This document shows, one piece after another, positions 32,859 through 64,000 of a stretch of DNA of 64,000 nucleotides. This stretch comes from Proteromonas lacertae (taxonomy: Eukaryota): assembly GCA_002245135.1 (NCBI GenBank), contig NGBS01001173.1, positions 62,001-126,000 of the forward strand, written 5' to 3'. The position numbers and the translations under genes were made by a program. Positions within the stretch are counted from its first letter, which is position 1, and every line of letters starts with the position of its first letter. The notes below the pieces were generated by a model that was not told the origin of the DNA, ran no database searches, and worked only from the letters and a program-made list of their open reading frames with translations.

Positions 32859-35404
32859 CTATTTCAATCCATTAAAACCGTTATAATTATGATATGCTAA
32901 TAATGGATTATAATTATTCACTTTATATTGGTTTTGATAAGTTATATTCCTTTTTTCACTCACAATTGATTGTCCTTGAATTATAGGAACAGAAACTAAA
33001 GGAGTAATTTTCTGGTTTGTTGTTAAAAATGTGGTTTTATCTCTTGAACGGGGTGTTGTTCTACTTCTTTCACTTGATCTTGACCTGTTATATGTAGTAT
33101 ATTTTGTAGAAGAAGGATGAGGAGAACCAAGACCAAATTTATTCTGTATATAAGAAGAACCTTTCAATATTTTCACTGTTTGTTGTTGTTGTTGCTGCTG
33201 CTGCTGCTGTTGTTTATATTGTAATCTTAGTTTCAATTGATCTGAGAGAGAGGAAGAAGTTGCAAAAGAATACTTATTAATTCCAGACATATTTGAATTA
33301 ATTACAATTTTGGGATTATCACTTAGATGGCTAGTAATATATAATTCACTATCTCTATTACTGGTAGTAGAAATATTTGCAGCTTTTCTACTGGGAGATG
33401 AGATTGGTGATCTTTTTATAAATATTGCTGAAGATTCATTATTATTGTTACTAGTGACATTGACATTTTCTAATTTTGAAGATAATGTAGATGATGTATT
33501 ATTAGTTACAGAAGAAGAATTAGGTTTAGAAGATGAAGATGTAGTTGAATTTGCATTGGTATTTGGATTAACACGAGATGATAAATTACTTGGTGTTAAT
33601 GGTAATGGAGTTTTTGGTACAGTAATAGTTGTAAGACGAGTTAAAGATGTTGTTGTTGTTGTTGGAGTTTTTGGACGATTTGAAAATAGTTTGATTGAAG
33701 TTCGTGGTGTTGTATGTGTTACAGGAACTATATAATAATAATAAAATAGAGAGATAGATATATACTTGAATTTGCTCTTCTAGTTGACATTTTTGTTCTT
33801 TGTAATGGTTTTCTATAAGAAGGAATATTCTTTTCTTCATATTCTTCATCATCTTCTTCTTCTATATCTTCACTTTCACCTGTTTTACTACTCTTTTTTC
33901 TCACAATTACTGTTCCTCTTGATCCTTTACCGTTCAATTCTTCAGCTGCAGATAAGAATTGATCATATTTCTTTTGTTTTTCTGGATCATCTGATGGATA
34001 GATCAATTTAAGAATGTTTGAATATTTCAATTCTAATTTTGCTCTTTTTTCTTCATATTTTTCTTTTATTTTCACTTTATCAATACTATTCTTAGTTGTA
34101 TCTCCTCCATATAACCTTCTTTTTGCAGATATTCCATGATATTTACTGACATGTTTTCGATCATATGCAGATACTTGAATCATTGACAAAGTAGTACCAA
34201 TTACTTCAGTTTTCACTTGATTATCTAATGGACTGTCACAGGTAAATGATGGAGAATGATTTACTTCCATTAACCTATTAATTATATATATATATATATA
34301 TAATTTATACCATGGTTTACACTTCCTATCTACCAAAATATCAAATCCCAAGACTTCAAAACAATTATTATTTTCCATTTCATCGGGTATTGAAGTATGA
34401 TATGTATGTGCTAATATTGGTTGAATCATTATAATTGTCTTCACAATTACATCACACATATCTATCCAGAATTTATCACTATCATATCCTTGTTCAGTGA
34501 GGTATTTTAAAAACCAAATTATACTACGTTTAGTACCTCTTCCTATATCAGGAATATCAGATTTTATTTCAAAATCTTTTTCTGCTTTGTTTACTGCATA
34601 GTTTGTTAAATGCATTTTCATTTTTCCTAAGTTCTTTGAAGTTGGATCTGTATATTTTACAGTACAAATTCTCACTAGCCCATCGTGGAATATATATATT
34701 CTTAATGGATCACAACAAGTGACTAAAACATAGATTCTTAAATCAAACTAAATAAATATAAACGTTAAATATATAATTTTTATACTTTATAACCTTCAAT
34801 AAGCAAAGGTTTTGAGATATATATTTGTGCAACAGATTTTTCAGTTTGACTGATTTTTTCTAGTTTTTTGGTTAGAATAATGCCTCGTCCTTGACATCCT
34901 GCATCTGGCTTTACTATCATCACTTTATTGGATTTACCATTGATAAAATGGGACTTGAATTCTAACCAATCTTGGGGTAATAGAAATGTCTTTGGATAGA
35001 AATTGTAATCATCTGGAAATAGTTTCTGCATTTTATTTAAATGAAATCCCATTAGATTCTTTCGACATATATTCAACATTCCAGGAAAATGGTTAATTTT
35101 TTGATAGGATTGAAGTTTCATAATACGTTCAGGTAATACCGATAGATCAGACCAATATACATTCCATGGAACTTCATCATCGTCGCAACACCTATACCAA
35201 CCTTTTGCTTCAGCACACCGCTGAACAACTTCATAACTAATGAAAATTAAATTTCTATATTTTATACACTGTGTTTGTCATGTTAATATAGACGGCTGGC
35301 TTATGACTCTTAGATTTCTTTTTGTCTTCAATTGGCACAGGATCAGGGTATATTACATGACCACATTCATCCAGCAAAGTTTCTTCTGAACCATTATAAG
35401 TCAT
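32859..35404 (-). CDS. TTLL6: Tubulin polyglutamylase, TTLL6/TTLL13-like
   Basis: Motifs WNVYWSD, QKINHFPGM..ICRKN, FYPKTFLLP, IVKPDAGCQGRGI, GYK|FDLRIYVLV, MHLTNYAVNK, CFEVLGFDIL, KPW|LMEVNHSPSF. Four GT-AG introns and a low-complexity S/T/Q tail. Confidence 0.88.
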
Positions 35405-35600: not shown

Positions 35601-38600
35601 TTACTTATCTTGTGGAGTAGTGGGGATGGTTCTAACCTTATCTTTCACTCTTCTCAATAACACTGTATGTTTTGATTCAAATATATCAGTCACTTTTGCT
35701 TTTTCTTGAATTATCTGAATAGCATCGTTTAATTCTTTCACATATCCTGCCAATTTGCTAATACCTTCACCATGACCAGTAAGAGTTGATTTAATTCTCT
35801 TCACTTCTTTCACTAACGATTTACCAATCTCCAAACTGTTATTTTCTTTATCTTCAGATTTAATATCAAATTGTTTTTTCATTTTCTTCTTCTTTTCTTT
35901 CTTAAACAATCCATTAGCTGTCCAGTAAATCACACCATCTCTTCCTTCCATTTTTGTACCCCAATAATCTTCATCTAATAGTTCTAAAACAACTGATCTT
36001 CTTTTAATATCGAAATTATCTTTAGAATCAGTTTGCATACTCAAAATATCATCTACCATATATTCAGCCATCAAAATTTCCCAATTGATAACTGACTGTT
36101 CTCTCACTTTTGGATATAATTCTGCGACGATACCTACGAATAGTGATACCAATGCGATTGATAAGAAGACATATACTATGAAATAAATAGTATAAACGAA
36201 TCTTCTATCTAAATTATAGGTAATATCATAATTGTTATTGAATGAAGATGAGAATAATTGGAAGAAAACGTATAACAAATTTGAAAACTGTTCAACTTCA
36301 GCACTGTAGGAAACAGCATAGGAAATTGAAGTCATTAGTGTAATAAAGAAGAAAGCGAATAAATAAAGCATCACATCAATATCTCTTATAGTATCTATAA
36401 TTGCTAAAATCATAGGTCCCCATGTAGGAATATAACGGAAGAATTTAATCAATCTTAGACCATATAGGAATTGTAATACTGAGATGAAATCTAATTCGTA
36501 TTTCATAGTGGTTAGTATGCTGGAATAATCGGTGAAGGTTGTAGAGGAGAAATCGATTGTATAACTATTGATCTATTTAAATAAAATATAATTATATAAT
36601 TATATATATATACAATTTGACACAATATAAAATCCCATAGTAATAGTATTAAAATACATAAAATAATAATCCAATCAAACAATAACCAACCATCTTTAAA
36701 TTGATTTGAGAAACCTCTATTTCTATAAATATCTTTAACCTTATAATAAGCTTCATATAATAATTCACTAAGTAATGCAATATCGAAATAATACTATTCA
36801 AAAATAATGATAAATTAATAAAAATATAATAATATACTGATGGTGCATGTTGTAAATCAATGATATTACCAGATTCTACATACCAAGTAGGTTCAAATTC
36901 ACCTGTTTCTTCTTTATTACCAGATAATGTAACTAGTGCTAATCTTTGAGTTGATGGATTATAGAAATTGAATTTTATTTTCAATGATCTTGTCCATTCA
37001 TCTGTTAAACCATTTTGAACTAACTGTTGATATTCTAATTGAGCATTTTTCAAATTACCAATTGGTATATCTTTTTGAAAAGTTGTTTTTACTTTTCCTT
37101 TCATACATACCAAATCTTTATTCACTACTAAATCCCATTGACTACAACTGTCACTTTCATAAGAATCAATTTCTATTCTCATTGAACCAAATAAAAATGT
37201 ATTTCCATGATAAACAGTCATTCCATTCACTTTAGAAACTTGTAACATTCCATAATCATCAGGATTCAGCAGTACATCTGCTATATAGTTGTTGTAATCA
37301 TGATAATTGTATAATAAAAAGTAATTATATTGTGTTAAGTCATTTTTAACGAGAGTTTGATAAGCATTTTCAAAATCAGGTCTGTAGTTAGGAAATAATG
37401 GAGTAAAAGCGATATATAATATATAAAATGCAATAGCAACAATAGCAGGTATTAAACAGGCAGTTATTCCATAAACATTTCTTCTATGTTTCACTTCACC
37501 ACTTGTTGATAATAATTCTACCACTTTTGCTGCTCTTAATTTACTTTTAATTTGCTTTTCGGATTTCTTTTCACCAATTGCATTTTTCAACTGTTTTTTC
37601 CATTTTTCTTTTACTGTTAAAGTTTCATATCTACAAGCTTCATGGTCATCTTTCTTTTTTGGCGCTTTTATTCTTTTTAATTTCTTTTTATTACTGTTAT
37701 TATCATCATTATCATCTTTATCTTTCTTCCAACATAACCATCCACTTTTCTTCTTCTTCTTTTCATTATTATTATCATCTAAATTAATAATATCAATTCC
37801 ATTAGCAGAATCATCTTTATTCACCATACCATTGTCTTCCTTTTTCTCTTTCATTTCTTCATTAATTGTGGCTGTAACTTGCTTCAGTAAAGCTCTACCA
37901 TATGGAGAAATCAATGTTCCATCTTCTTCCATTGGATTTACTCCATGTTCTAACAATATCTGTATAACAGGAGTATGACCAGCTTTGACTGCTAAACTTA
38001 AAGGTGAATATTCACAATAATCAATAATCTTCTTATTCTTCTCATTATTTGTATTATTGTTATTATCTTCATCATTATCATTATCACTATCTTGATAACT
38101 ATCTCTACCAGTTTCTTTATTGATTCTTCCTGTTTTCATTCTATCAGTGTCTTGTGTTGATTCTCTATTAGTCATTGCTGATATGTTGTTACTGGTATTA
38201 TTATTATCATTTGAAGTTGTTGGAATTAATGGAGTTCCAGGTCTTGATCTTGATGACATAAAACCACCAGCACCACCTCTTCCACTTCTTAATTGGTCAT
38301 TACTATTACTACCCTCTTTGTTGTTATTATTACTTAACATCATACTGTTACCTAAACTACTCATTTCTTTCTGATGTTTTTGTAATTTTGCTATGGCATT
38401 CATAGATGATTCTCTTCTTGAACTTTGCATATTCTTTCTAGAAGAATTGATTGGTGAATTTACATTACTGTTTAATTCATCAGGATTTCTAAATACTGAT
38501 TTGATTAATGGATTATTATCTTTTGCTGGAGTTCTCATTACAGCATTTGGTATTTTTAATAATGGAACTGGTTCTATATTATTATTATTATTATTTCCTC

Positions 38601-41600
38601 CAGAATTATCATTATTAATAGATGGAGTATTTGGTGTTGTTGGTGATTCATTATTATTATCAATTCTTCTTGATACTGGATTAGGTGTTTTGATTAATAA
38701 TGATCTATTCATTGACATTGGGGATTCAGTATTGGAAGTAATATTCTGTATAATTGCACCTGAAAGTCTTTTATTTGTTGCACCTCTTGATAATACACTT
38801 GTACGTTTATTCGGTTTTGTTTTTGGTGTATTATTTTCTGTAGTTGGTGTATTATTATTTGTTCCATCTGATGGGAATTTCAAACCTCCAACTGGGTTAC
38901 TATTAGCATCAGGTGTTAATATAGATCCTTTTTGTAACGACTCTTTATTTTTATTCTTTTTTACCAACATACTTTTCTTCTTAGTAAATGCTGGTTCATT
39001 ATTATCTTTATCTTTATTTTTTCCTTTATTCTTACCTTTTGCTATTGCATCTATTTGTTTCTTAACAGAATCATTCTCATTTTGTTGTTGTTTATCATCT
39101 TCAATAGGTAAAACTTTACTAGTTCTAGCTGTAGCATGAAAGAATATATTATTACTATGTTCAATTCTACTATGCAAAGTATTCAAATCGACTGAATTAT
39201 CTCTTAATAATAACGCTAATATTTTATCATGTCCGTTTGCACATGCATGATGTAAGGCTGTGTAGCCGTTATTATCTTTCTCCAATACTTGTGCCCCAGA
39301 TCTTAACAATAAATCAACAATTTGATAATTACCTAAAAATACAGCTAACATTAAAGGAGTCATTCCTGTATTATCTTTAAGTTCAATATTCGCTTTGAAT
39401 TTAATTAATAATTCACAAACAGCTAAATGTCCTCTTTTTACAGCTAAATATAAAGGGAAATGACCATATTGTTTGTCTTTATAGTTTATATTTGCAACTA
39501 TATCATCATCTGATTGGATTAGTAGTGGAATAATATCGATTTGATCATTTCTACAAGCTCTATGTAAATACAAATTGAACAATTGTTTTTTCAATTTTTC
39601 TGTTTCTTTCATATTATGTTTTAAAGAGTGATAATCATCGTAAACATTAGCTGTAGAAATCAAAGCAGGATCTTCTCTTACTTGAACAAATGAATAACCT
39701 AACAACAAAATATCCCGAATTATCTCCAAATTATCCATTTGAAATGAACATTTTTCTTCATCTGATAAATACTCATATGGAACTAATAAATTCGATGTTT
39801 TACCTGTTGCATTACTATTCACATCTGGACTATATTTACATCCATTATCCATCATGTTCTTACTCCATATTTCATGTGTATTCTTTGATAATCCTTGAAT
39901 TAACATCAATAAATTAGGATCAATTTCTATATCATCTGTACATAATACAGCTGGATAATAATCTTCAGGAGTAGCTGTTTCATCCCAATCAGCTTTTGTT
40001 GCTTCAACAATACCTTCTTGTTCACATACTAATTCATATCCGAAATATTTAATCATTTTTATAGTATTTGTTACATCTTTTACATAATTCTTTCTTTCAT
40101 TCACTGTCATTGCATTCCAAGGAATTAACATCGGATCAATCATAGCATTTTCATCTCTTTGCATTCCTAATTGCCATCCTTCATCTATCTTCTCTCTCGC
40201 CCATAACTCATGTTCATTGATTGCTAAACATTCGATTAAATCCTTCAAATTATCATCATCTTCGATTAAGTTACTTGGATCTATAGGATGTGGTTGGTAT
40301 TTATAACCTTCAGTTTCTCGTTTATCTACACCCAATAAGGAGATACAGGTGTTTTTAGTACAGTTACAATATGTATCAGCGATTAAACCTTTATATTCAG
40401 TATCATGACCTTTATGGCATTTTTGATTGCAAATTAGACAGATGAATACATCGCAGGTTTTACATCGATACATATGTTGAGTGATTGGATTAGTGAAGTT
40501 GGCAAAAGCAAATGTACATGATTTACGATCTATATTATAATAATAATAAATGCAAAAAAGAAATAGATTTATACATTTTAATCTTCGAGTAAATTTCAAC
40601 AATAATTCATCTATTTCTATACTATTTTCATCAAATCTCAACAATCCTTCTACTACATCACTTTTTCCTGTTATTATCATATAATTCAATAATTTATAAA
40701 CTGCTTGACCTGTGCATCTAATTACTATGACTTCCTGCCATTATTAATGATTTACAACAAGCGATATCATCTTTTAATATCTAATAATAATATATATATT
40801 ACAATATATACAGCATAATCTAATTCACAATAACCTGTTTCTTCATTAATATCATTCAATTCGATAAAATTTGGCCATTCATTCATCACTATATCAATAA
40901 CTTCACTTTGGTTATTCCAAGCAGCAATATCGATCTAAATTACAATAATATTAAGAAATAAATATTTATATATACAATATTATAACCTTGTTTTAATCGA
41001 CGATTGATTAAATTCTTTTCTTTAAACATTTCACGATAATCTTCAGTCAATACACTATCAAATAAACCATATTTACAATTATAAAACAAACAATCCCAAC
41101 CACGATCATCTATATTTATCATTAATTGAAAGATTTTGGCTTTCTTCTTTAGTTTTTCATTGATTATGTTGAACATCTTTTCAGTTACATTTTTATCACT
41201 ATGAATGGATAAAGATATACAATTTGCATGATATCTAGATTTGGCTTGAGATTTGACTTTACTGTTACTTAATAATAGTGAAACTATTTCATAATTTGCC
41301 ATTTCACAAGCGATCATTATTGGAGTATAACCATCAGTATATGAAGGTAAATTCAAATCTGCACAACCTGAAGTTATTATCTTTTCAGCAATCTATTCAA
41401 CAAATTAATATATATATATATATACTTCAGTTCTATTTAATCTACAAGCTAAATGTAATGGAGTATCACCCATTATATTCTGAATATTCATTCCAATTTC
41501 ATAATTAAATAACAAATCAACTAAATTACTTCTTCCAGATTTAACTGCACAATGATATAGATTCTCATCCAAAGGAGCACATTTTCCATTTATCTTTACA

Positions 41601-43027: not shown

Positions 43028-44224
43028 ATGTTCTCTTCTTGGTTGAACAATCACAAATTTGAGGTATTAATATTTATTTATTTTTAATTTTGTGATTTAG
43101 TTATTGAGTGATAGAAGTAATAATAGGATGTGTAAAATTCGAGATGCATCTAAGAATTCAAAGAGATTGTTGAAAGTGATGAATGTAAGTGAGTTAGATC
43201 CAGATATAGTTGATGAAGTAGTATTAATAATGAATAAAATGAACAATTTGAATATTAGTGGTTTAATGAAGTATAAATTAATCGAAAATGACGAAAATTG
43301 TTTGTATCTAGTGATGAGAGAATATAAAACTCACTTAGATAGAATTAATCCTTTCAAGTATTATGAAGAAAGTGGTTCATTTGAAGTCTTGAAAGGAATT
43401 TTAATGGTATTGAAAAGCTTAAATGAAACAGGAACAATTCACAGTGATTTAAAACCATCCAACATATTTATAACTGATGAAAATGAAATTAAGATAAGTG
43501 ATTATTGTATTAATTTATTATACAAAGGAAGAGAAGGTAAAAAATTTGCAGGAAAGATGGAAGATTTATGTTTTATTTGTTATGATGAATTATTAGGAAA
43601 AGAGTTAGATATAAGTAGTGATATATGGAATTTTGGATTGGTGTTTTACTATATAGAAAGTGGAAAATATCCATTTGTTGGAAAAAATATGTCCGAGACA
43701 TTATTAAATATATTAAATATCAATTATATTCCATTAAGCAGTGAAACTGACAGTGATGGATTAAACAAATTTCTAAGAAAAGTGTTAGTAAAAGAAAAGA
43801 AAGATCGTTTAAAACTAGATAAAATATTGAAGGAATTGAAGAGTATATATAATTGTAAGTTTTATAATTAAATAGGATTAAATGAACCAGAACTTCCAGT
43901 AACTCCTCATGAAGTAGAAGATCTTTTAATTCCACCAATTCCAATTATAATAGGAAGTACAAAAGTTGCTGATTGGATGAGTATATAAATAAATATATAA
44001 TTATTATTATTAACTAGAAAATTGTATTGATTCTAAAATCAGTCAATGTAAAAACTCTAATGAAAATGAGTTGAATTTTGATGGATGTATATATATATAT
44101 AACAGTTATTAAATATTATATAAATAGTGGAAATGAAAGATGAAGAGATGAAGTATTTATTTTCCTCACTTGATACAATGAAGAATATTATAAAAATAGA
44201 TGTGAGTAGTATAATAATAATAAT

Positions 44225-44256
<32 letters not shown>

Positions 44257-44832
44257 TATAGGTCAACAGTTAAGTTCAATTGGATTTACTTTCTTCTCTT
44301 ACAGTCTGAAATTCTTTCCAAATTTAGAGCAATTATTATTAAGTTGGAATTCAATTGGAAATGGTGAAGGTTTTAAACCTTTTTCTGAGAATGTTCATTT
44401 CATTCCTAAATTAAAAGAATTAGTAATGGTCAGTATTATATATATTATTATTATTATTATTATTAAATAGAGTGTGATTTGAGAGATAGTGATATTAAAT
44501 ATTTATCTTCACATTTTGAGGATATTCATAATTTAGAGAGATTAAATTTTTCGAGTATTTTTATAATAATAATAATGTTAATAGATAATAAAATAGGTGA
44601 TTATGGAGTGAAGTGTATATGTGATAGTATTGATGAATTAACAAGATTACAAGATTTACATTTGGAGAATAATGAAGTTGGTGATAAAGGAGGAGAAATA
44701 CTGCTAGAGAATCTTGATAAATATAAAAATTCAAGATGGTTGTATATCCATCACAACAAAATGTCAAATTATGATGATTTCATTGAAAAGATGAGAGAAA
44801 AGTATCCAGACAAAAGTTTAAAGATAATGTAA
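43028..44832 (+). CDS. Pseudokinase plus RNase-inhibitor-type LRR protein
   Basis: ATG at 43028 and a 37-nt intron at 43064-43100. The kinase fold has HSDLKPSN, DYC in place of DFG, DIWNFG and no Gly loop. A Pro-rich linker precedes 28/29-aa LRRs (LEQLLLSWNSIG, LQDLHLENNEVGDKGG). LRR exons of 171 nt (44262-44432) and 84 nt (44471-44554) are bounded by phase-1 introns. Confidence 0.85.
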
Positions 44833-45104
44833 GTAGTTTTTTGTTTTTTATTATTGTTTATTTCATTTAACATTCTTTCTTTAGTGATTTTAATACAATG
44901 CTATTATTCAATTCAGATTAAGTGATCAGTACAATTTATCAAGCGCATTCCGTTGAATGTATAGTAACAGAATCGGAAAGGAAATGAATAAGAAGAAAAG
45001 AAGAAAAAATATACTCAAGCCTTAGTGTAAAAAGCTCGAGATTTTTCAAATAGTTACTTTTTAGTTCTTTTTGTAGTTATATTTAATATTGCTCATTGAA
45101 ATCA

Positions 45105-48100
45105 ATGAATTCACTTTCTAGTTGGTTAAATAAACGCAAATATGAAGTATAATTATCATTTATGTAATGTTTTAAAATTTTAGTTGTTAAATGATAAAAA
45201 TATCAGTAGATTATGTAAAATTCGAGATATTTCAAGCGATTCAAAGAAATTATTGAAAGTAATAAGCCTGAATGAGTTAGATCCAAAATCAGTTGATGAT
45301 GCAGTAACCACCATGAACAATGTGAATAATTTGAATATACCCGGATTGATGAAGTATAAAATAATTGAAAAAGATGGAAACTACTTATATAGAATAATGA
45401 CAGAACATGAAACTCATTTAGATGAAATAAATCCAATAAAATACTTTTCAAATCATGATTCATTTAAAGTAATGAATGGGATACTGACAGTATTGAAGGG
45501 ATTGTATGAAAATGGAACAATTCACAGTGAATTAAAACCATCTAACATATTTTTGAAGGATAAAGATGAGGTAATAATAAATGATTATTGTAACAATTTA
45601 TTATATAAAAGAAGAGAAGGTAAAAGAATATCAAAGATAGAAGATTTATGTTTTACTTGTTTAGATGAGTTAGTTGGAAAAGAACTTGATGTATATAGTG
45701 ATATATGGAACTTTGGTTTAATACTCTATTATATAAAGAGTGGTAAATATGCATTTCGTAGTTTAAATATATTACAAACAATAGACAATATACGAGACAT
45801 AAAATATGTTCCATTAGACTGCGAATATGACAAAGAGTTAAACTCAATTTTGGGTAAAGTGTTATGTAAAGAAAAAAAGAATCGCTTAAAACTTGATCGC
45901 ATAATGACTGAAATACAAAGTATTGATGTTTAATAATTATTATTTAGAATTGAATAAGGCTGAACTTCCAACAGTTCCATTTCAAGTAGAACCAGAAATT
46001 CCTGCAATCCATTTTGATATAGAGAGTGTAGAAGGCTTTGCAGATTTAGAAGAATATAGAAGAGCAATTCTATACTTTAAACGAGCATTGGAATTATCTA
46101 CCACAAATAAAGATAAATCAGATAATAATAACCAAATTGGTATATGTCATTTCAAAATGGTATATATATATATATATATATATATTCTTCTATACAATGG
46201 ATAATTAGAATGAATATAAAGAAGCTATTCCTTACTTCAAAAGTTCGCTAGAGTTTTCAGAATTAGATGATATGAAAAATGTTACTAATAGAAACATAGG
46301 TGAAAGTTATTATGGGATGGTATAGAAATAATACTATAGCTATAATAGAAAGAATTTAAAGAGGCTATTAAATATTATAAAACATCTTTAGAGTATAGTT
46401 CATCAGATGAGATAAAATGTAAGATTAGTAATCGTATTGGTTTATGTCACTTCAATGTTGTATATATACAATATTTAATAATTATAGAAAGAATACGGAG
46501 AGGCAATTCCATATTTTAAAACAGCTTTAGAATATTCATCATCAGACGAAATGAAGTTTGAAAATAACAACCAAATTGCTTCATGCTTTTTTAATTTAGT
46601 ATAATATTAAGATGATATTTACAACATATCTTAGAAAGAGTATTTAGAAGCAATTCCTTACTATAAAGCAACAATAGAGTATTCTTGTTCAGATGATGAA
46701 ATAAAGTCAAATAGTTATAGCATGATTGGTTTATGTTTATTTTTAATGGTATAGAATCAATATATAATTTTGAAATAGAACAAATATGAAGAAGCAATTA
46801 CATATTATAAAAGTGCATTAGAATATTCTTCATCAAATGAGATGAAAGAAGTATTTAGTAAGACTGTAGGTAATTGTTATTATAATTTGGTATACTTAGT
46901 ATTGATTTAAATTCAAATAGGATAATTATGTTGATGCAATTCCATATTATATAAGCGTATTAGAAAAATCTTCATCAGATGATGTAAAAGCAGAAGTTAA
47001 TCAGAATATTGGTAATTGTTATATACAGATGGTATAATAACTTGAATGTAATATTGAATAGGATAAATACAAAGAAGCTATCCCTTATTATAAGTCTGCA
47101 TTAGAAAACTGTTCATCAGATGAAAAGAGAGAAGTTCTTAATCAAAATCTTAGCTTATGCTACTATAATCTTGTATAATAACCAAATCATAATAATAAAT
47201 AGAAAGAATATAAAGAAGCAATTCCATATTTTAAAAACATATTAGAGAATACATCAAAAAATGATGTTAAATCAAATATTAACAATAAAATTGGTTTATG
47301 CTATTTCTATGTTGTATAAATTCATTAAACTATTATTGGATAGAATGAAAGTTCAAATGCAGTTATGTATTATAAGGTTGCTTTAGAGTATTGCTCATCA
47401 AAAAAAATGAAGGAAGTTATTAATCAAAATATCAGTTTGTGTTTATATAAGAACGTATTGAAAATGATATATTCCATTGTATAGAAAGATTTTGAAGAAG
47501 CTATTCCTTATTATAAATATGTAATAGATAATTCTTCATCAGATGATAATAAGATATCCAGTAGCATTCAAATAGCTCTATGTTATTTTAATATGGTATT
47601 TAACACATTGCTATATATAAATAGAAAGAATATATGCAGGCTGTTCCATATTTCAAATATGTATTAGAAAATTCTTCATCAGATGATGATATAAAAGAAA
47701 CATTCAATCAGAATATTGGTAATTGTTATATACAGATGGTATAATAACTTGAATGTAATATTGAATAGGATAAATACAAAGAAGCTATCCCTTATTATAA
47801 GTCTGCATTAGAAAACTGTTCATCAGATGAAAAGAGAGAAGTTCTTAATCAAAATCTTAGCTTATGCTACTATAATCTTGTATAATAACCAAATCATAAT
47901 AATAAATAGAAAGAATATAAAGAAGCAATTCCATATTTTAAATACATAGTGGAGAATTCTAAATCAAATGATATAAAAGAGATATTCAATCAAAATGTTG
48001 CTAATTGTTATTATAATATTGTATAAAAGTCATAATATAATCATTATATAGAAAGAATATAAAGATGCAATTCCTTATTATAAGGCTGCTTCAAAATATT

Positions 48101-48516
48101 GCTCATCAAAAGAAAAGAAAGTATATTGCAACAACCAAATTGGTTCATGTTATTTTGATATGGTATGCATTTAACAAATAATAATTTTAGAAAGAATATT
48201 CTGAGGCAATTCAATACTTTAAAACTTCATTAGAATATTGTTGTTCAAACGACATAAAATCAAGCACAAATAACAAAATTGGTGTATGTTATTTTAATCT
48301 GGTATAAAACACTATATTATCATTTAAATAGGAAAAATATGATGAAGCAATTCCTTACTATAAGGAAGCATTAAAATATTCAACTACAACTCACATGAAT
48401 GAAGTGATTAACCAAAATATAGGAGTCTGTTATCATACTATGGTATAAATAATATAAATAATATATGATTATAGGGTGATTATAATGAAGCGAAAAAATA
48501 CTATAATTTCGAGTAG
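45105..48516 (+). CDS. Pseudokinase plus TPR-array protein (20 exons; 16 internal single-repeat exons)
   Basis: ATG at 45105, introns at 45147-45183 and 45920-45947. The kinase is paralogous to the upstream gene (HSELKPSN, DYC). Then come 16 exons of 111 nt (two of 114 nt), consensus KEYxEAIPYYKxALEYSSSDxxKxxxNxxIGxCYFxM, separated by phase-0 introns. The last exon is 48475-48516. Confidence 0.9.
46999..47942 (+). repeat. Perfect 237-bp direct duplication inside the TPR array (46999-47235 = 47706-47942)
   Basis: The identical sequence includes two introns (gtataataacttgaatgtaatattgaatag and gtataataaccaaatcataataataaatag) and one full exon, at an offset of 707 bp. Confidence 0.9.
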
Positions 48517-48768: not shown

Positions 48769-51700
48769 TTATTCTATAAACTTCCATATCTCAATCTCAT
48801 TTTCACTTGAAACTATTATATCTTCACCATTTAGATTATATTTTATATTATATATTGGATCATAACCATGATTTATATGACATATTAAATCTATTATTAT
48901 AATAATAAATAGAAATATACCAAATGTCTGTGGGTTTATAACAACAATACATCCATTATAAGTACAAAATGATAAATACATAATCTTATTGTTTTTCAAA
49001 CTAAATCCATAATCCATATCAACTATCCAACTCTCTAAATCGAAACTATATTCTTCATTTCCACTTGAATAATTATATTTTATTAAAACTGGTGGATAGG
49101 CATTACTAGTTAGATAGATTATGTTGTTTTCTATTGGAGAGAATAATCCTAAAGTTGGAGTAGCTGGTCTTTCATTGTTTAACATTATTTTATCACTCTT
49201 TTTATCATTAATTTTAAATATATCAATTGGGCTTGGCTCGTTTTCAATACTAAATATTATTATTATTAAATAAAAAAAATATATATACATTTTCCACACT
49301 GAGATTTGTCTACTTCGACTTGTACATAAGAATATGTTATTATTATTAACATTCACTATACTGGTGTCAATCTCACTATCTTTATTCAACATATATTTAT
49401 CATTTAAATCAATTGTATGACTAGAAAATCGTAGCTTTATATTATTATTATTTTCATTATCATCTTCATATTCTAACATTGTATAACCAATACAACCATC
49501 AATTGTACCAACAATTATTCCACTACTTTTATCATTTACAAAACATACACTACTAATTGGAGTTGTATAAGGCCTCATATGATTCAAATATTGATTAGTA
49601 TATAAATTGTAGAATAATACTCTACCATCATTTAAACCAATGCAAATTGGTATTAATTCATCATCTATCTCATTACTTATATCATAACAACTTATCTCTA
49701 GAATATTTTCATTATTTAAATCTTTTCTTAATTTGATTTCTTCCACTTTTATATTTGTATTACAATCCCAGAAATTCATTACATCTTTATTACAGGTTAT
49801 ATATAATAGATTATTTAAACAGTATTTCAGTTTTAAACCATCAATTTCACATTTGTTAATATATTTTGATAGTTTCTTTTCATTTATATTTAATTCATAG
49901 ATTTCATTATTAGAAGTTCCAATAAAACAAGCATAATTGGTTTCTTCAATTGATATTGCTTTAATATATCCATTTATGGAGATATAGCTACTGTTTGGTT
50001 GACCTTTCATTAGTTTCAATGATTCTCTCATCTTACAGATATATAATCCATCAAATAATCCACTTATATATAGTTTATTATCAATCCAAATCATCTTATT
50101 GATTTCTGCATCTAATGGCCAGTGATTGTAAACTTTACCATGACTATCACATAAGTAGAGAAAGTGGTTCTTCTTACTGATTATAAACTTACGATTTTCA
50201 CTTCTTACTATTTAAATATATCAATAATATATATATACATCTTTTAGGTTTTCTTACTATATAAGTAATTTCACTTTTATCAGTTATTGATTCATATATT
50301 ATATTATGACTTACGATCTCAGGTTTGTCATATTCACTCATTATATCACATATATACAAATCATTATTGATTGAATATAATAGCGTTGTATTCTCTAACC
50401 AAATTATATGATTTACTGCTTTTTCACATTCAAAATTATAGATTTCGCTGGAGATTAGATCGTATATTTCAACTATTCCATTCTCACTTGTAACACACAT
50501 AAATCTTCCACTTTCATTAAAACTCATTTCGTTAATATAGGAAGAGTAATTGTGTTTAGATATAAGGGTGTATTTGTTTTGAGTTAATCGATAGAATAGT
50601 AATATTGAATGACTTTCAGAGAATATATCACATATTACACTTAATGTACAAGCTATATAAAAATATTAATATAAAAGGAAAAAAGATTATATATATATAT
50701 ATATATACAATTTTTACAATATTTGATTGTTCTAACATATCCTTCACAGAGTATTGATATTTGATTTCTTGTTTCTATTTCATGCATAATAATCCTTTGG
50801 TTGATCGTATATAATAATTGATGATATTCACTTAACCATATGATATTATCAACTCCATTACCATTATAACCTAATACATTATGTAACTTTAACTTATTAT
50901 TGATATCTATATCATATTCACCTATACTCTCGAATAGAGTGTTTATTTCATTATTATCTTCATTTTCTTCTTCTTCTTTTTCTATTTCATTATTATCCCA
51001 TTCATATTCAATATTATTATTATCATCATTATATACATCATCTATTGGAAATGATGTTTCTGTGTTATTTCCAGTATGTATTTCAACAGTATTATCCATT
51101 TCATTATCTTTATCATTATAATCTTCTTCTTCTTCTTCTTCTTCTTCATTATCTGTATTAGTTGTATTTGTATTTGTATTTGTATTTAATGATTTACTAC
51201 TAAATATCCCATTCTCTATTTCTACATTTTCATCACTTTCATTGTTATTTATTACACTACTCACAGTTTGAATAGTTGAACTTATATTATCTAAATTATT
51301 ATTATTATTTATTATATTATTAATATTGTTATTATCTTCTACTGAATTTAATTCATTATTATTATTATTATTATTATATTCATTAGGTGGAGGTAATTCA
51401 CTACCACTATAACTTTCTTCACCATTATCAGAATACACTGTACTACTTGTATTATCTGTATTTGTTATTATAATATGATCATTATCATAATCATTCATAG
51501 TTACATCAGGACTCATAACAATTGGTTTAATATCACTTTCACCTTCATTACCATAGAATTCCCAAATATATAAACAATTAGAATCATCAATTGAACTAAT
51601 ATATCTTCCATTATTACTTATTTTAATATCTTTTACTTTACCAGTATGACCTATAAACGATTGATAAGATGCATTTGGACCTCCTGTTTTCAATAGCATA

Positions 51701-54700
51701 TCATGAATACCAATTGACCCATTCTCCGCACCAGTAATGAAATATAATGGTGAAGATATTGTCAAACTACTAACTTTGGGATTATATATAGAATTACAAC
51801 TTCTTATCCTACTTCCATTATCTACATTATAGATATACATCTCATTGTTAGAAAGAATAGTCAATAGCTCTAATCCATGAATAAACTCAATACAATTGAA
51901 TAATAGTTTATTTGTTAAGTTAGATTCGTCTGGAATTATCAAAGTATTCATTTTCCTTTTATTACTATCTGGTGGATAGATATGATTAACGATATTCAAT
52001 GTTATACAGTCATATATAATAATCTCACATCCTTGTGGCACTAATAAACCCAATCTAGTACCTAAATCATTCATTTTCATTGTTGAAGTAATTATACCAA
52101 GTGGTCCTTTTGATTGACTCATTTTTATAGGGTTATAATTATCACTGATATCGTAAATACATATAGCTCCATCTACTGAAGAAGAATACAAATAATGACC
52201 AGAGAAATGATAGATTACAGAGACAACCTTGGAATTATGTTGTTTCATTTGCTTAATAAGTTTTTGCTCATTTATATCAACGATTTTAACCATACCACTT
52301 TCAAATCCAATTGCTACAAAATCTCCATTAGGATGAAAAGCACTACATATTGCTAAATCATATAAATGAGTTGGATTTAATTCTATTAGACTATTATTAT
52401 CATTAATAGATTTGGATTTACTTTTAAACTCTCTTAATTCACAACATGTATTAATATCCCATAATCTTAAAGTTCCATCTTTTGAAGTAGTTAAAATTGT
52501 TTTATTATTTGGACTAAATTGTACAGATAATATTTCATCAGAATGTGAACGTAATAGTGTGATATGTTTATGATTTGATATATTCAATATTCCAATAACT
52601 CCATTTATAGTTCCAATTATTACATCTAATCCATCATTACTTATATCTAATGATGTTATAGCTACATCATGATTTGCTTCTAAGTAGAAGTCACTAAAGT
52701 CCAAAGGCCATACTCTGACATAACCATCATCACTCCCTGTTATACAAAACCCTTCGTTGATTAATATGCTATTAATGCAATCATCATGCAATCTAAATAC
52801 ACATTCTAATGCTTTATTATTACTATTTATCTGTACAACTGTTCCTTTATTGGAAGCTACAAATATTCGTGGTAATATATTATAAGTATCAGACATATCA
52901 AATGTACTTTCAAAGGCAATATCTGTATAGGTTATACCTCTTGCATATTCATTTAATACAACAGGACAACTATGTAATACTTCCATTCCTATTTGATGAT
53001 GTCTTTTGATTCGATATCTTCGCCAAAATCGAATATTTTCATAACCGCAACTAATAACCTGTTCATGTTCATGATTCTCTGGAAATGGACAGAATTTTAT
53101 TCGTTTTACATTTGCTTCGTTATTTTTCTTCACTAAAGGTGGAATAAATCTTTTACTATCAACATTTTCATTCCTTATATCTTCCATTGAGTATAATATG
53201 ATTTCAGTTAATCCTTTTATTCCACTACCTGCAATTACTAAGTAATCACTATTACTACATAAATTCATATCGTATATCTCATTAACAGGTAAATTGAAAG
53301 GTCTCAAGCTGGAGTTTGAAGCTATATCCCAATAGATAAGTGTTGGATTTTTACCACTTTGAACTGTTAAAATAAATTCTCCTTTTTTATCAATTTCTAT
53401 TCTTTTAATTGGCTTAGAATGACGTAATAATATATTTTGTTTTAATGGTATATTTTGGCTATTATTATTATTGTTATCTTTTACATTATCTTCATCGTTA
53501 TTAATGTATCTTTCCATACTCACCAATAGTGGACCAGTTGGATAATAAATCAAAGAACTAGTTGCATTCCATTTAATTATATTGTGATATTGATTATTAA
53601 ACCCAATTGTTGATTTTAAGGACATGATCGGATCTGGCTGTAAAACAGAATGAGACAAGGACTGAGCCAATAAAGCTTGACTGATTTGGGTCTTGGATTG
53701 AGATTGGCTTGATGGATATGAATTTGTAATACTGTTATTATCACTAACAGTTGGTTTATTAACGGATCTATAGAGGGGAGAGACATTCTTTGCTGCTTGT
53801 ATATAGGATTTCAATAATTCATTGGTTTTATTCATTTGTTTTGTTGATCTGAAGGATATTGGCGTTCTTTCTGCTTTTGTACTGATTTTTGATTGATTTA
53901 ATGCTTCTGCTGTTGAAGAAGATGATTTTTCTGTTGTACTTACTGTTGTTGTTGTATCATTCATTTTATTTGACAAATTGTTGTTATTTTCATCATTCTC
54001 TTGTTTATTCTTGGATACTAATTGAGATATTGCATTTTTACCACCCATCATCTCTTCATCATGCTTAACTTCTGGTAACCAACAAAAATCATAATCATCA
54101 TAGAATGTTCGTTTATTTCTAAGTGGAAACTTCATGTCACGAGGTAATGTAATTTCACTGTAAGAGGTATCACTGGTGTAAACTCCTCGAATTACTAATG
54201 TTGCACAAATTTGAATCTATAAAAAAATAATAACATAGATATAAATGATAGATATATACATTTTTAATAGACCAACTCCATTCAATAGAATTGTCTACTG
54301 GATTTAAATCTGAATAATCTTTCACTATTGATAGTAAATCAAGTGATAAAATTGTCCACTTTTCTTTAGGAAATACGAATGGAACCTATATCAATAACAA
54401 AATATGAATAATTACTTGAATAGTGTTAGGATTAGTAAAAGATGGCCTTTTATACATGTTGCTAACTGAAATACGCAGCAATGAAGATGTATCTTTCATT
54501 TTTATTGTTATATGAATGACATATAACTCAGGATCCATTCCTTTACATTCAAAGTAACTACAATAGAAATAGAAATATAATAAATCATACATATATCTTC
54601 CAGTTAAGCCTAATGACTTGCCTTTATCTGGAATAGTAATGGATGTTGAAGCAGATGTGGAACCTTGAAGTGTATAGACTCTCTTACCTATGATTCTATC

Positions 54701-61400: not shown

Positions 61401-64000
61401 CTGTTAATTGTGCTTTTGTTGCTGCTTGGGATGAGTATATTTATTTGTGTTATAATATTTGTTATAGAAATGATTATGGAACTTCAATAGCGCAATTAAT
61501 TTATCAAGCTGCTAAAACATACAAGGGAATTAATTGTAGTTATTTTATGTTTAATGGTACTGAAGGAATATCTGATTTAGTTGGTAATTTAACTGCAAAT
61601 GTTTCTCAAGATGCAACAATTTTTACTTTTGCTGGAATATTTACTGAAAATTTATTAGGTGAATTATATAGTTTAGATAGTAATTATACTATTGTTTTAG
61701 CTGATCAATTTGAATCTTTAATAGTAGAAAGTAAACATCAAGAATACTATAAAGGAGTTTATATTGCAAGTAGTTATTTATCAGAAGATAATAGTAATGA
61801 GAATTATGTATTAAAAGATTTGATAACTAACCAATATGGTATTGTTACACACTGTATGAATGAAATCACTACAAAAATGTATATTACTAATGTATTTAAT
61901 TATCTAATAATAGTCAAGCTTCTATATTATTCTTCAATGACGCTGTTGCTAAAACTGGTTCAACTGATCCATTTACCATTAGAAAACAATTTTATAAACT
62001 TACAGAATCAACTGCTCAAGGTGATACAACTATCGATAATAATAATATTATGTCAACTAAGTTCATAATGGGTAGAGTAAATGATGATTATGGAATTGAC
62101 ATTGTTGCTAAGTCACCATATCCATTACTAGTTAATCCATTCTCTGAATATGTATATTTTTATTTGATTATATATAGCTGACTAATTTTCAAGAGTATAA
62201 AACTTGCAAATTTGAGGAGATGGTTGAATCAGATTCTGATGTTTATAATGAAGATGCTTATGTAGTTGATGATGATGTTCTAAGAGTTGAAATTATTATA
62301 AACGAAGGACAAGAAGATTTAACACTGTTTCTAGTTTTATCCACAATTTTAATGAAACAGAATAATAATGGAGGATTTTTAGATAGAAAGATAGTTGCAG
62401 AAAGATTATATTGTCCTAAAACAAACTCAACAGAAGACATAGAAACATTAGAAATAGAAATAGAGAATAGAACATCATCATTTCTTATTAGTAACTGCAA
62501 AGAAGAATTGATACAACCTGTCTTTGAATATTTCGTAGGTAAGAATATCTTGTTCTTTGATATAACTGATAGTGATGCTACAAATTGTGTTAATAATATG
62601 TATGTTTATATATATATATTTAATATATAGTCTTGTATTTGGTTCAACACCTCCTCAACGTACAATTCCTAATTTGTTCTATTTAAGAAAGACAAGAGAT
62701 GATTTTTACTTCCTCATATTAGCACCTGAATCATATAAAACATCCAATGAAATACAATTAGTTACTTCAATGATAAATGAATTAACTGGAACTTATAGAA
62801 CTTTTTATGTTTCAACAACTGATGAGATTATATCAACAATGCAAAATTCAAGAGTGTATTTTTCATCAGGTTTTATTGTATTGAATTATCTTACAGGTGA
62901 TTTATTCCGTGATGTTTATCAATGTTTGAATGAAACTTACAGTGATTTAGATAAAGAGTATTTTGAACAGCATTATATAGTTGTTACACCGAATGGTGAT
63001 GAATTTAGAAAATTACCACCAGCATTATCACATCATAATCTTTTAATTACATCTTATTTTGTTGATCATATTGAAGGAAATATTATGTCTTCAGGATTAC
63101 ATAACTTACTTGGAAATGATCATTTTATTACAGAAAATGAATTGAAGGTATATGTTGCTGCAGATTATTTCTTAAATGCTTTACTTTCATGCTTATCTGA
63201 GAATGTGACAATATTAAGAGATAAAATAATAGAAACTCATTATACAACACCAATTGGAGATGTCAATATTCGTGAATCATTATATCCTGATTTACCTGTC
63301 ATTTTATTAACTTCAAATAATGGAAAAGTAGAATTGGAAGCTGTATTGTCTAAACAATGGCATTCTGAATTATTCAGAAGAAATGCATTTAATCCAACAT
63401 CATATTCAACTTGTAGTTATACATCCTCTCATTTTATTGAATATGAATATACAAAGATTATATTAGCTTTACCAATAAGTGGTGAATTGAAAGAATATGG
63501 TGCAGATACAGTAATTGGATTATATGCAGGAGTTGATAAAGTCAATTATGATGCTAGTTATGATGCAAGAACATTATTATCTCATGTTGTTGATATTGGC
63601 TCAGATACAGAAACATTAGTTGAGAAGTTAACAAATGCTACAGAGAAATATAATTCATCTGTTATATTTGGATTATATGGAAGTGATCAAAGAAAAGCAA
63701 TAATGCCATTACTACATGATGAAGATGATGAATTGATGTTATTCTATTTATTTGATAATGAAGGTGAAGAATGTGATTCTAATATAGTTTATATGGGACC
63801 TTCTGTTTATAGTAATACAATATTAATACCATGGATTCAATCCAATCTTGGCAATTCATTAATTATATTGTATCATACAACCACTGAACAACAAGCTATG
63901 TATAGATATTATAAAAGACATTTAGAATTAAGAGGAATGACATTAGTTGATGCTGTTCCAATTAATTTAGGAGTTACTGATATGTCTTATATTGTGAGTA
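58455..64000 (+). CDS. Secreted/membrane protein with at least 5 tandem UrtA/AmiC-like periplasmic-binding (Venus flytrap) domains; runs off the window
   Basis: Signal peptide MKILLTFIFLFNLCSC. Repeated type-I PBP motifs, e.g. LALPISGELKEYG...VVDIGSDTETLVEKL...VIFGLYGSDQRKAIMP...EGEECDSNIVYMG. About 10 introns; two +1 shifts are needed near the 5' end. Confidence 0.75.
60016..60072 (+). other. Probable U12-type (minor) intron with AT-AA termini
   Basis: A 57-nt AT-rich insert with two in-frame stops and no AG acceptor. It starts ATATCTTT and has a branch-like TTCTTTAAC at 60055-60063. Removing it restores GEKC-x7-G spacing. Confidence 0.65.

Follow-up and report, generated by a model that had tools for sequence, protein, structure and literature searches.

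What kind of protein is encoded by two adjacent genes that begin with the same degenerate kinase-fold domain and end in two different kinds of repeat? The question is raised by a gene pair of Proteromonas lacertae (assembly GCA_002245135.1, contig NGBS01001173.1), located at positions 43028 to 48516 of a window of 64,000 nucleotides (contig positions 62,001 to 126,000, forward strand; all coordinates below are those of the window). In gene 1, the kinase domain is followed by leucine-rich repeats (LRRs) of the ribonuclease inhibitor (RI) type, while in gene 2 it is followed by an array of tetratricopeptide repeats (TPRs). A constant degenerate kinase module with exchangeable protein-binding tails is a trait of the whole family to which the two genes belong, with relatives that carry further kinds of tail. 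The pair is read here, with slightly better than even confidence, as tandem paralogs in a lineage-specific family, whose cytosolic kinase-fold proteins likely serve as protein-binding signalling scaffolds or switches and not as ordinary kinases.

Gene models and shared architecture

Gene models were built by enumerating short GT..AG introns and seeking open splice paths under the standard code. The features of the pair are as follows.

43028..44832, forward strand: gene 1, 510 amino acids (aa), 8 exons (43028-43063, 43101-43842, 43876-43980, 44018-44086, 44128-44205, 44262-44432, 44471-44554 and 44585-44832), stop TAA
43876..43980, forward strand: Pro-rich linker exon of gene 1, RLNEPELPVTPHEVEDLLIPPIP...ADWM, identified from its sequence, the linker being conserved in the relatives P0075 and P0135
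44018..44832, forward strand: RI-type LRR region of gene 1, about six repeats of 28-29 aa in five exons
45105..48516, forward strand: gene 2, 937 aa, 20 exons (45105-45146, 45184-45919, 45948-46159, 16 repeat exons between 46209 and 48442, and a last exon at 48475-48516), stop TAG, frame open from start to stop
45948..46159, forward strand: exon 3 of gene 2, Pro-rich linker and then the first TPR-like unit, placed by DNA and protein alignments (TPR_1 19.7 bits)
46209..48442, forward strand: TPR array of gene 2, 16 phase-0 exons, 14 of them of 111 nt and 2 of 114 nt
46999..47235, forward strand: first copy of an identical 237-bp stretch, running from the end of one exon across an intron, a complete exon and a second intron into the start of the following exon
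47706..47942, forward strand: second copy of the 237-bp stretch, zero mismatches, five repeat units downstream of the first

Both genes open with a short exon sharing the motif SSWLNxxKxE (MFSSWLNNHKFE in gene 1, 43028-43063; MNSLSSWLNKRKYE in gene 2, 45105-45146), followed by a first intron of 37 nt in each (43064-43100 and 45147-45183) and a kinase domain held on a single exon (43101-43842 and 45184-45919). The kinase exon is closed by a phase-1 intron, of 33 nt in gene 1 (43843-43875) and 28 nt in gene 2 (45920-45947), and a Pro-rich linker follows, reading RLNEPELPVTPHEVE in gene 1 and KLNKAELPTVPFQVE in gene 2. A 21-nt alternative intron after the gene 1 kinase exon was dropped because an in-frame TGA results, and the donor of the fifth exon of gene 1 is ambiguous by one codon (44205 or 44208). 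All 19 introns of gene 2 measure 28-49 nt, start with GTAT and end with TAG. The tandem, co-oriented paralogs with common 5' architecture that had been described by an earlier, sequence-only reading of this DNA are thus reproduced by the gene models, from exon 1 to the Pro-rich linker.

The proteins share 50% of their residues over an alignment of 378 aa (E 8e-110), and about 60% in the kinase exon, and 745 of 1193 aligned columns are identical at the DNA level. This likeness begins a few tens of bases 5' of the ATG and fades just past the linker, so that the point at which the genes diverge lies inside exon 3 of gene 2 and not at an intron. A tblastn search of both strands of the window found neither a third copy nor a stray repeat exon, and no hydrophobic signal or membrane segment can be read from the sequence at the N-terminus of either protein.

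Fold and catalytic residues of the kinase domains

Both kinase domains belong to the eukaryotic protein kinase superfamily. Pfam Pkinase (PF00069) matches them with 75.2 bits in gene 1 and 61.0 bits in gene 2 (cut-off 31.7), and an AlphaFold2 model of the gene 1 kinase exon, computed with 19 family sequences, displays the full bilobal fold (pLDDT 90.5, pTM 0.89). Foldseek aligns this model with the Ser/Thr kinases Stk1/PknB, PDK1, MARK, CDPK, NEK7 and DAPK (E about 1e-13, TM 0.65-0.77), while by sequence the closest solved structures are CAMK-like. The best solved-structure matches are the CAMK-like kinases MLCK4, DAPK, CDPK and MARK, and NEK7.

The motif set of a competent kinase (GxGxxG, beta3 Lys, HRD Asp, catalytic-loop Asn and DFG) is incomplete in both genes. 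As the sequence-only reading had noted, the Gly loop is lost (the corresponding positions read SNNRMC and KNISRLC, with no glycine in either gene), DYC replaces DFG in both copies, and the catalytic loop, HSD in gene 1, reads HSE in gene 2. Gene 1 retains the beta3 Lys (LLKV), the HxD Asp, the catalytic-loop Asn and the DFG Asp. A pseudokinase is a kinase homolog that has lost at least one of three residues, namely the beta3 Lys, the HRD Asp and the DFG Asp; gene 2 fits this definition through its change of Asp to Glu, and gene 1 does not. The proposal that both copies are probably pseudokinases thus stands for the TPR copy and is not supported for the LRR copy, in which Lys, Asp, Asn and Asp are all kept. 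Gene 1, a non-RD kinase by its motifs with all four key residues, may retain weak phosphotransfer, while in gene 2 phosphotransfer is probably absent. The ratio of nonsynonymous to synonymous substitution rates (dN/dS) between the two kinase exons is 0.27 (Nei-Gojobori method, NG86), with mostly synonymous differences, a sign that purifying selection acts on both domains and that neither is decaying.

The kinase family beyond the pair

An exhaustive HMMER search of 1.84 billion representative proteins returned 94,552 proteins at E <= 0.001 and 6 at E <= 1e-30. The closest match, P0075, was found at 71% identity and is 63% identical to gene 2 over the aligned columns of the family profile; the close relatives all come from run assemblies. 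A family profile built from 17 matches and the two window exons sets 30 of the 150 best listed representatives apart from the rest, at 146.7 bits or more against at most 125.2. Fourteen of these 30 lay outside the training set of the profile, one of the 14 being nearly identical to a training row. The family is monophyletic with respect to four generic kinases, with a support of 98 in the approximate likelihood ratio test (SH-aLRT). Within it, gene 1 groups with P0075 (SH-aLRT 84), inside a clade that includes gene 2 and P0396 (SH-aLRT 99). With P0075, and not gene 2, as the partner of gene 1 in the tree, the duplication that separated the two genes is not recent.

The degeneration seen in the pair is characteristic of the family. 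Across 32 family sequences, the column of the catalytic Asp holds D in 7, N in 20, E in 1 and S, A or G in 4, so that the Asp is lost in 25 of 32. The residue preceding it is S in 7, G in 24 and N in 1, and is never Arg (0/32). The catalytic-loop Asn and the DFG Asp are each present in 32/32; the latter is followed by Tyr in 25/32, and the third DFG position is Cys in 19/32 and Gly in 2/32. The beta3 Lys is kept in 19 of the 21 sequences that cover its position. Residues that bind nucleotide and metal are thus kept while the catalytic base is usually lost, which is the pattern of nucleotide-binding pseudokinases.

By these sequence comparisons, the pair belongs to a distinct family; no paper on a family with this signature was found in keyword searches of the literature, which prove nothing about absence. 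A word-index search of longer proteins with the gene 1 kinase yielded generic kinases only, at 35% identity or less; many were bacterial kinase-TPR proteins, judged to be unrelated convergent architectures. With the gene 2 kinase, a word-index search of near lengths at E <= 1e-15 gave one match, P0396 (45% identity), and no close counterpart; this search was not exhaustive, because it did not return P0075 despite 63% identity. When the family alignment was compared with metagenome and genome contigs, generic kinases alone were recovered, with at most 36% identity and mostly on high-GC contigs or in bacterial metagenome-assembled genomes. The metagenome contig L021 (2239 bp, GC content 0.20) was considered as a family member and ruled out, for it encodes a canonical NEK-like kinase (GSG..., conforming to GxGxxG; HRDLKPSNIF; DFG). 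L021 is the only AT-rich locus among the contig matches, has a 662-aa frame under standard stop codons and may come from an organism of similar composition.

The contrast between HSD in gene 1 and HSE in gene 2, on domains otherwise 60% identical, invites a second explanation of the pair, which is unlikely although it carries the most weight among the alternatives. In this view, gene 1 would encode a functional non-RD kinase, regulated by a catalytically dead partner from gene 2 with which it pairs through the kinase domains, and the LRR and TPR tails would engage different cargo. The adjacency and co-orientation of the genes, their partly common upstream sequence and the purifying selection on both kinase domains are consistent with such a partnership, and there is precedent in kinase-pseudokinase pairs such as HER2 with HER3, which is mentioned in PMC3019232. 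However, adjacency is the sole link between the two proteins, and the tree joins gene 1 to P0075 and not to gene 2, as befits a duplication that is not recent. Moreover, the non-exhaustive search found no counterpart of gene 2 elsewhere, and Glu is a conservative replacement of the catalytic Asp that might retain activity.

The LRR tail of gene 1

The tail of gene 1 is an RI-type LRR of the LRR_6 kind. On exon 8 alone, LRR_6 scores 22.1 bits, slightly below its cut-off of 23.4, and stronger evidence comes from intronless relatives that are themselves LRR_6-positive (31-80 bits). In blastp comparisons, the spliced tail matches P0135 at E 2e-17, P0099 at 8e-17, P0093 at 7e-15 and P0090 at 1e-9, staying in frame with these relatives over its full length, linker to C-terminal cap. 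This in-frame alignment to intronless relatives validates the splice model of gene 1. Four of the introns in the LRR region fall at the same point of the LRR unit, just after the beta-strand segment.

The TPR array of gene 2 and its growth

The C-terminus of gene 2 consists of 17 full TPR-like units of 37 aa (two of them of 38), with half a unit at the end. The first unit is encoded by the last part of exon 3, and each of the other 16 has an exon to itself. Every repeat exon encodes helix B of one TPR, a loop 3 residues longer than the canonical one and helix A of the next repeat. The tail is therefore a TPR variant with a unit of 37 aa against the canonical 34 and a longer loop. TPR_1 was the best Pfam match for all five repeat exons scanned and stayed below its cut-off in each, because every exon splits a TPR. 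A profile of 16 units, in turn, matches designed consensus TPR proteins at E 9.2e-13, with helix B (eYkeAIpYYKsaLE) and helix A (nIGlCYfn) aligned. The earlier assignment of RI-type LRRs to one copy and about 17 TPRs to the other is in this way upheld, with about six LRRs in the former and 17 units and a half in the latter.

The array bears the marks of repeated duplication. Tandem Repeats Finder reports a period of 141-142 bp, corresponding to exon plus intron, and a repeat search placed a 125-nt unit, intron sequence included, 15 times. Together with the perfect 237-bp duplicate, this periodicity indicates that the array expands or is homogenised through unequal crossing-over or gene conversion of exon-plus-intron cassettes, and since the repeat exons are of phase 0 and of one length, each such event preserves the frame. 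With symmetric repeat exons of the same length and a sign of recent exchange, gene 2 resembles the exon-shuffled repeat genes of Ectocarpus and Tetrahymena.

Pairwise dN/dS among the TPR exons has a median of 0.44 (112 usable pairs of 136), and 10 pairs, mostly the least diverged, exceed 1; on 37 codons such values are at noise level, and relaxed and diversifying selection are not separable. The most variable positions of the unit are TPR positions 2, 3, 5, 9, 12 and 13, which map by hand to the concave face, and the same positions vary in any TPR protein.

As a side observation, the 17 introns of the array (46160-48474) are all of phase 0, ten being exactly 30 nt long and one 36 nt. In 15 of the 17, the second codon is an in-frame TAA or TAG (GTA TAA or GTA TAG), and the remaining two have an in-frame stop further in, so that retention of an intron would end translation early.

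Tails across the family

The tails were scanned in 18 longer matches, 14 of which are family members. LRR_6 lies above its cut-off in 5 of these 14 (P0090, P0093, P0263, P0099 and P0135, with P0093 and P0263 forming one cluster), and P0146 shows the start of the same LRR. In the model of P0263 (pLDDT 87.3), a helical linker joins the kinase to six strand-helix LRR units spaced 28 residues apart; at a pTM of 0.62, the relative arrangement of its domains is not fixed by the model. Three members, P0109, P0171 and P0132, have in common a beta-rich domain some 165 aa long. A weak SPRY score was obtained for one of these proteins, 16.9 bits against a cut-off of 26.3, covering profile positions 2-112 of 121, and a profile of the three beta-rich tails found nothing significant among solved structures. 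Pro-rich tails occur in P0076 and P0118, and the tail of P0167 matches no assigned domain. A Pro-containing linker follows the kinase in all family members scanned. The suggestion that a degenerate kinase with swappable tails defines a family is therefore borne out, for relatives with the same kinase and linker carry LRR, beta-rich or Pro-rich tails.

TPRs were seen only in gene 2, and a local search of 395 fetched proteins found none in the family. The relatives come from short contigs of run assemblies, and their reading frames end at introns, so that tails built as one exon per repeat, such as the TPR array, would be invisible among them; the absence of TPRs is accordingly weak evidence. 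The LRR-bearing members are scattered over the family tree, and the simplest reading is that the LRR is ancestral and that gene 2 replaced it with TPRs. By this distribution, the RI-type LRR is the commonest tail of the family and probably the ancestral one.

Function of the pair

If the two genes belong to a family of scaffolds or switches, the repeat tail would bind a partner protein, while the kinase-fold domain would bind nucleotide and relay a signal through its conformation or through association with an active kinase. The origin of gene 2 would lie in a duplicate that exchanged its ancestral LRR tail, inside exon 3, for a TPR array, which would then have expanded by unequal crossing-over or gene conversion. 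Three points weigh against this account. With its four catalytic residues intact, gene 1 could be an active kinase, normal though unusual; the tails counted in the family are a minimum, biased by short contigs and by frames that end at introns; and "scaffold" is a generic role, suggested by analogy with known pseudokinases.

If an ATP-binding, inactive kinase fold does carry exchangeable tails, the family would illustrate cleanly how nature swaps domains on a pseudokinase scaffold. The exon-per-repeat arrays known from the LRRs of Tetrahymena and from the TPRs and LRRs of Ectocarpus would then also reach a third lineage, in the context of a kinase. The family further supplies a searchable signature for protist genomes, namely H-[SG]-[DN]-LKPSN ... 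D-Y-C, a Pro-rich linker and a variable tail. As it stands, it is a lineage-specific multidomain kinase family, of a kind already known from protist kinomes.

The combination of repeat tails and a constant module also calls immune receptors to mind, and the sequence-only reading had proposed a receptor family of this sort lacking a nucleotide-binding oligomerisation domain (NOD). The repeat tails would recognise non-self, whether pathogens, symbionts or prey, exon duplication would diversify them, and the degenerate kinase would signal. This explanation is rather improbable. It draws on the LRR, TPR and possibly SPRY-like tails, all of which are used by innate immune receptors elsewhere, and on the non-RD state of 32/32 family sequences, a trait reportedly linked to pattern-recognition signalling. 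The symmetric phase-0 TPR exons and the perfect recent duplicate recall the candidate receptors of Ectocarpus (PMC3341825), dN/dS is near or above 1 in the closest pairs of TPR exons, and the variable TPR positions map to the concave face. Against these points, however, NACHT, NB-ARC, TIR and death-fold domains are all absent, just two copies are present in 64 kb among neighbours that are cilium and ion-channel genes, and gene 2 is the sole family member in which TPRs were seen. Members with only 25-32% identity to the LRR tail of gene 1 conserve it along its whole length, linker to C-terminal cap, which looks like the accommodation of a conserved partner and not like the turnover of an arms race. 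The concave-face positions vary in every TPR protein, and dN/dS over 37 codons is prone to noise, its median being 0.44; the expected positive selection on the repeats was accordingly not borne out, with 10 of 112 usable pairs above 1. Nothing tested supports an immune function, and comparable proposals have already been published for Tetrahymena and Ectocarpus.

Marginally less probable still is a more specific form of this idea, in which the family would be a kinase-fold counterpart of the nucleotide-binding LRR receptors (NLRs). A nucleotide-binding, mostly dead non-RD kinase would serve as the constant switch, RI-type LRR, TPR and SPRY-like tails would be swapped between paralogs, and the TPR arrays would diversify by duplication or conversion of cassettes, the pair acting as two sensors or as a sensor and its helper. 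Like NLRs and other receptors of the STAND class (signal transduction ATPases with numerous domains), the pair has interchangeable LRR and TPR superstructure repeats C-terminal to a nucleotide-binding signalling module. Unlike them, it lacks the P-loop of NACHT or NB-ARC; its module is a kinase fold in which nucleotide binding is predicted, and the likeness is architectural only. Pfam scans gave no NACHT or NB-ARC match in 9 exon translations (4/8 exons of gene 1 and 6/20 of gene 2) or in the 18 matched proteins, and the models of gene 1 and gene 2 leave no space for such a domain. The NLR-likeness put forward earlier consequently survives in architecture and not in domain content.

Decay of functionless duplicates, or an artefact of the gene models, is very improbable: the degenerate motifs would agree with it, the perfect 237-bp duplicate could be an assembly error, and a nearby 21-kb tandem repeat with many frame breaks hints at imperfect assembly of repeats, but gene 2 is open across 20 exons with 19 canonical GTAT..TAG introns, dN/dS of the kinase exons is 0.27, the same motifs recur in relatives from many independent run assemblies, and the splice model of gene 1 agrees with intronless relatives.

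Comparison with known systems

In Tetrahymena, LRR genes contain arrays of 90-bp exons, LRR, TPR and protein kinase (PK) domains are expanded in species-specific genes, and an analogy with innate immunity was raised by the authors (PMC6564038). The gene pair resembles these LRR genes in coming from a microbial eukaryote and in having long arrays of one exon per repeat, whose near-identical exons suggest recombination in the recent past; the domains concerned also include kinase, LRR and TPR, as does the set expanded in Tetrahymena (PMC6564038). The differences are equally clear, for the Tetrahymena arrays encode LRRs in 90-bp phase-2 exons, while the phase-0 exons of gene 2, of 111 nt, encode a TPR-like unit and the array is attached to a degenerate kinase. 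Standard stop codons are used here, unlike in Tetrahymena, and family expansion is reported for the Tetrahymena genes (PMC6564038), whereas two copies are known here, from one window.

Ectocarpus possesses NB-ARC-TPR, LRR-ROCO and LRR-kinase genes with exon-encoded repeats, which were proposed as candidate pathogen receptors (PMC3341825). Its TPRs, like those of gene 2, are built from repeated phase-0 exons of the same length, encoding 42 aa in Ectocarpus and 37 aa in gene 2, and its LRR-kinases likewise have a modular exon structure. By contrast, the TPR arrays of Ectocarpus are attached to NB-ARC and that of gene 2 to a kinase. Shuffling in Ectocarpus is demonstrated by inactivated and reshuffled exons, although it is absent from the LRR-kinases (PMC3341825), while tblastn found no stray TPR exon in the window.

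In layout and proposed role, gene 2 resembles the brassinosteroid-signalling kinases (BSKs) of plants, one of which, BSK8, is a pseudokinase. BSKs are cytoplasmic proteins with an N-terminal kinase or pseudokinase and C-terminal TPRs (PMC9208177), and they act as signalling adaptors. Their TPR domain is short, unlike the 17 repeats of gene 2, and a specific relationship was not seen, no BSK being present among the 60 solved-structure matches listed for the gene 1 kinase.

Kinases with C-terminal TPRs or LRRs, and families rich in inactive members, are already known from protist kinomes (PMC3019232). Among the tyrosine kinase-like (TKL) kinases of Phytophthora infestans, some members have eight C-terminal TPRs and others have LRRs, and expanded protist kinase families include many inactive members (PMC3019232). 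The pair shares with these TKLs a kinase with C-terminal TPRs or LRRs and many catalytically inactive family members. It differs in that the P. infestans proteins belong to the TKL group and are often transmembrane with extracellular LRRs (PMC3019232), while the pair, as read from its sequence, is soluble, has CAMK/NEK-like fold matches and carries intracellular RI-type LRRs. The family signature H-[SG]-[DN] with D-Y-C sets it apart further.

The window and neighbouring genes

The window is AT-rich (GC 0.22-0.30 in 2-kb windows), its introns are very short, and its long frames, for instance of 1363 and 1187 aa, are open under standard stop codons. A scan of the window for Rfam families and tRNAs found none. 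The pair is surrounded by genes for cilium proteins and ion channels, and these neighbours suggest a eukaryote with cilia or flagella. Tiny GTA..TAG introns, AT-richness and the cilium genes together give the window a putatively ciliate-like character. The next gene after gene 2, on the opposite strand, encodes a multi-propeller WD40 protein (48769-54216, reverse strand), which matches the second and fourth propellers of WDR90/POC16 and is likely a basal-body or centriole protein. On the other side, a TTL-family exon (33728-34747, reverse strand) has as its closest named relatives the polyglutamylases TTLL6/13, at 37-47% identity and mostly from animals, with one green alga. Between this exon and the pair, a gene on the reverse strand (35601-40740) combines two RyR domains and ankyrin repeats in a 1363-aa frame, with an Ion_trans segment in the next frame, an unusual architecture for a channel.

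An ankyrin and isochorismatase-like gene is also present in the window. At its far end (62566-63999, forward strand), an open frame with Peripla_BP_5 and Peripla_BP_6 continues past the window and may be the ligand-binding part of a receptor. The window also contains a 21-kb tandem array (11439-32598, forward strand) of 129 copies of a 162-bp unit, with 97% matches and a GC skew of about +0.61. The product of each unit is an acidic repeat of 54 aa (DPCYLYDEDKVMDLPIIYNNEKDENDELLKNELLEGDELLPKEEEEEEESIKENDV), and the many frame switches along the array suggest that it is either a very large repetitive gene interrupted by indels of the assembly or a gene that is degenerating.

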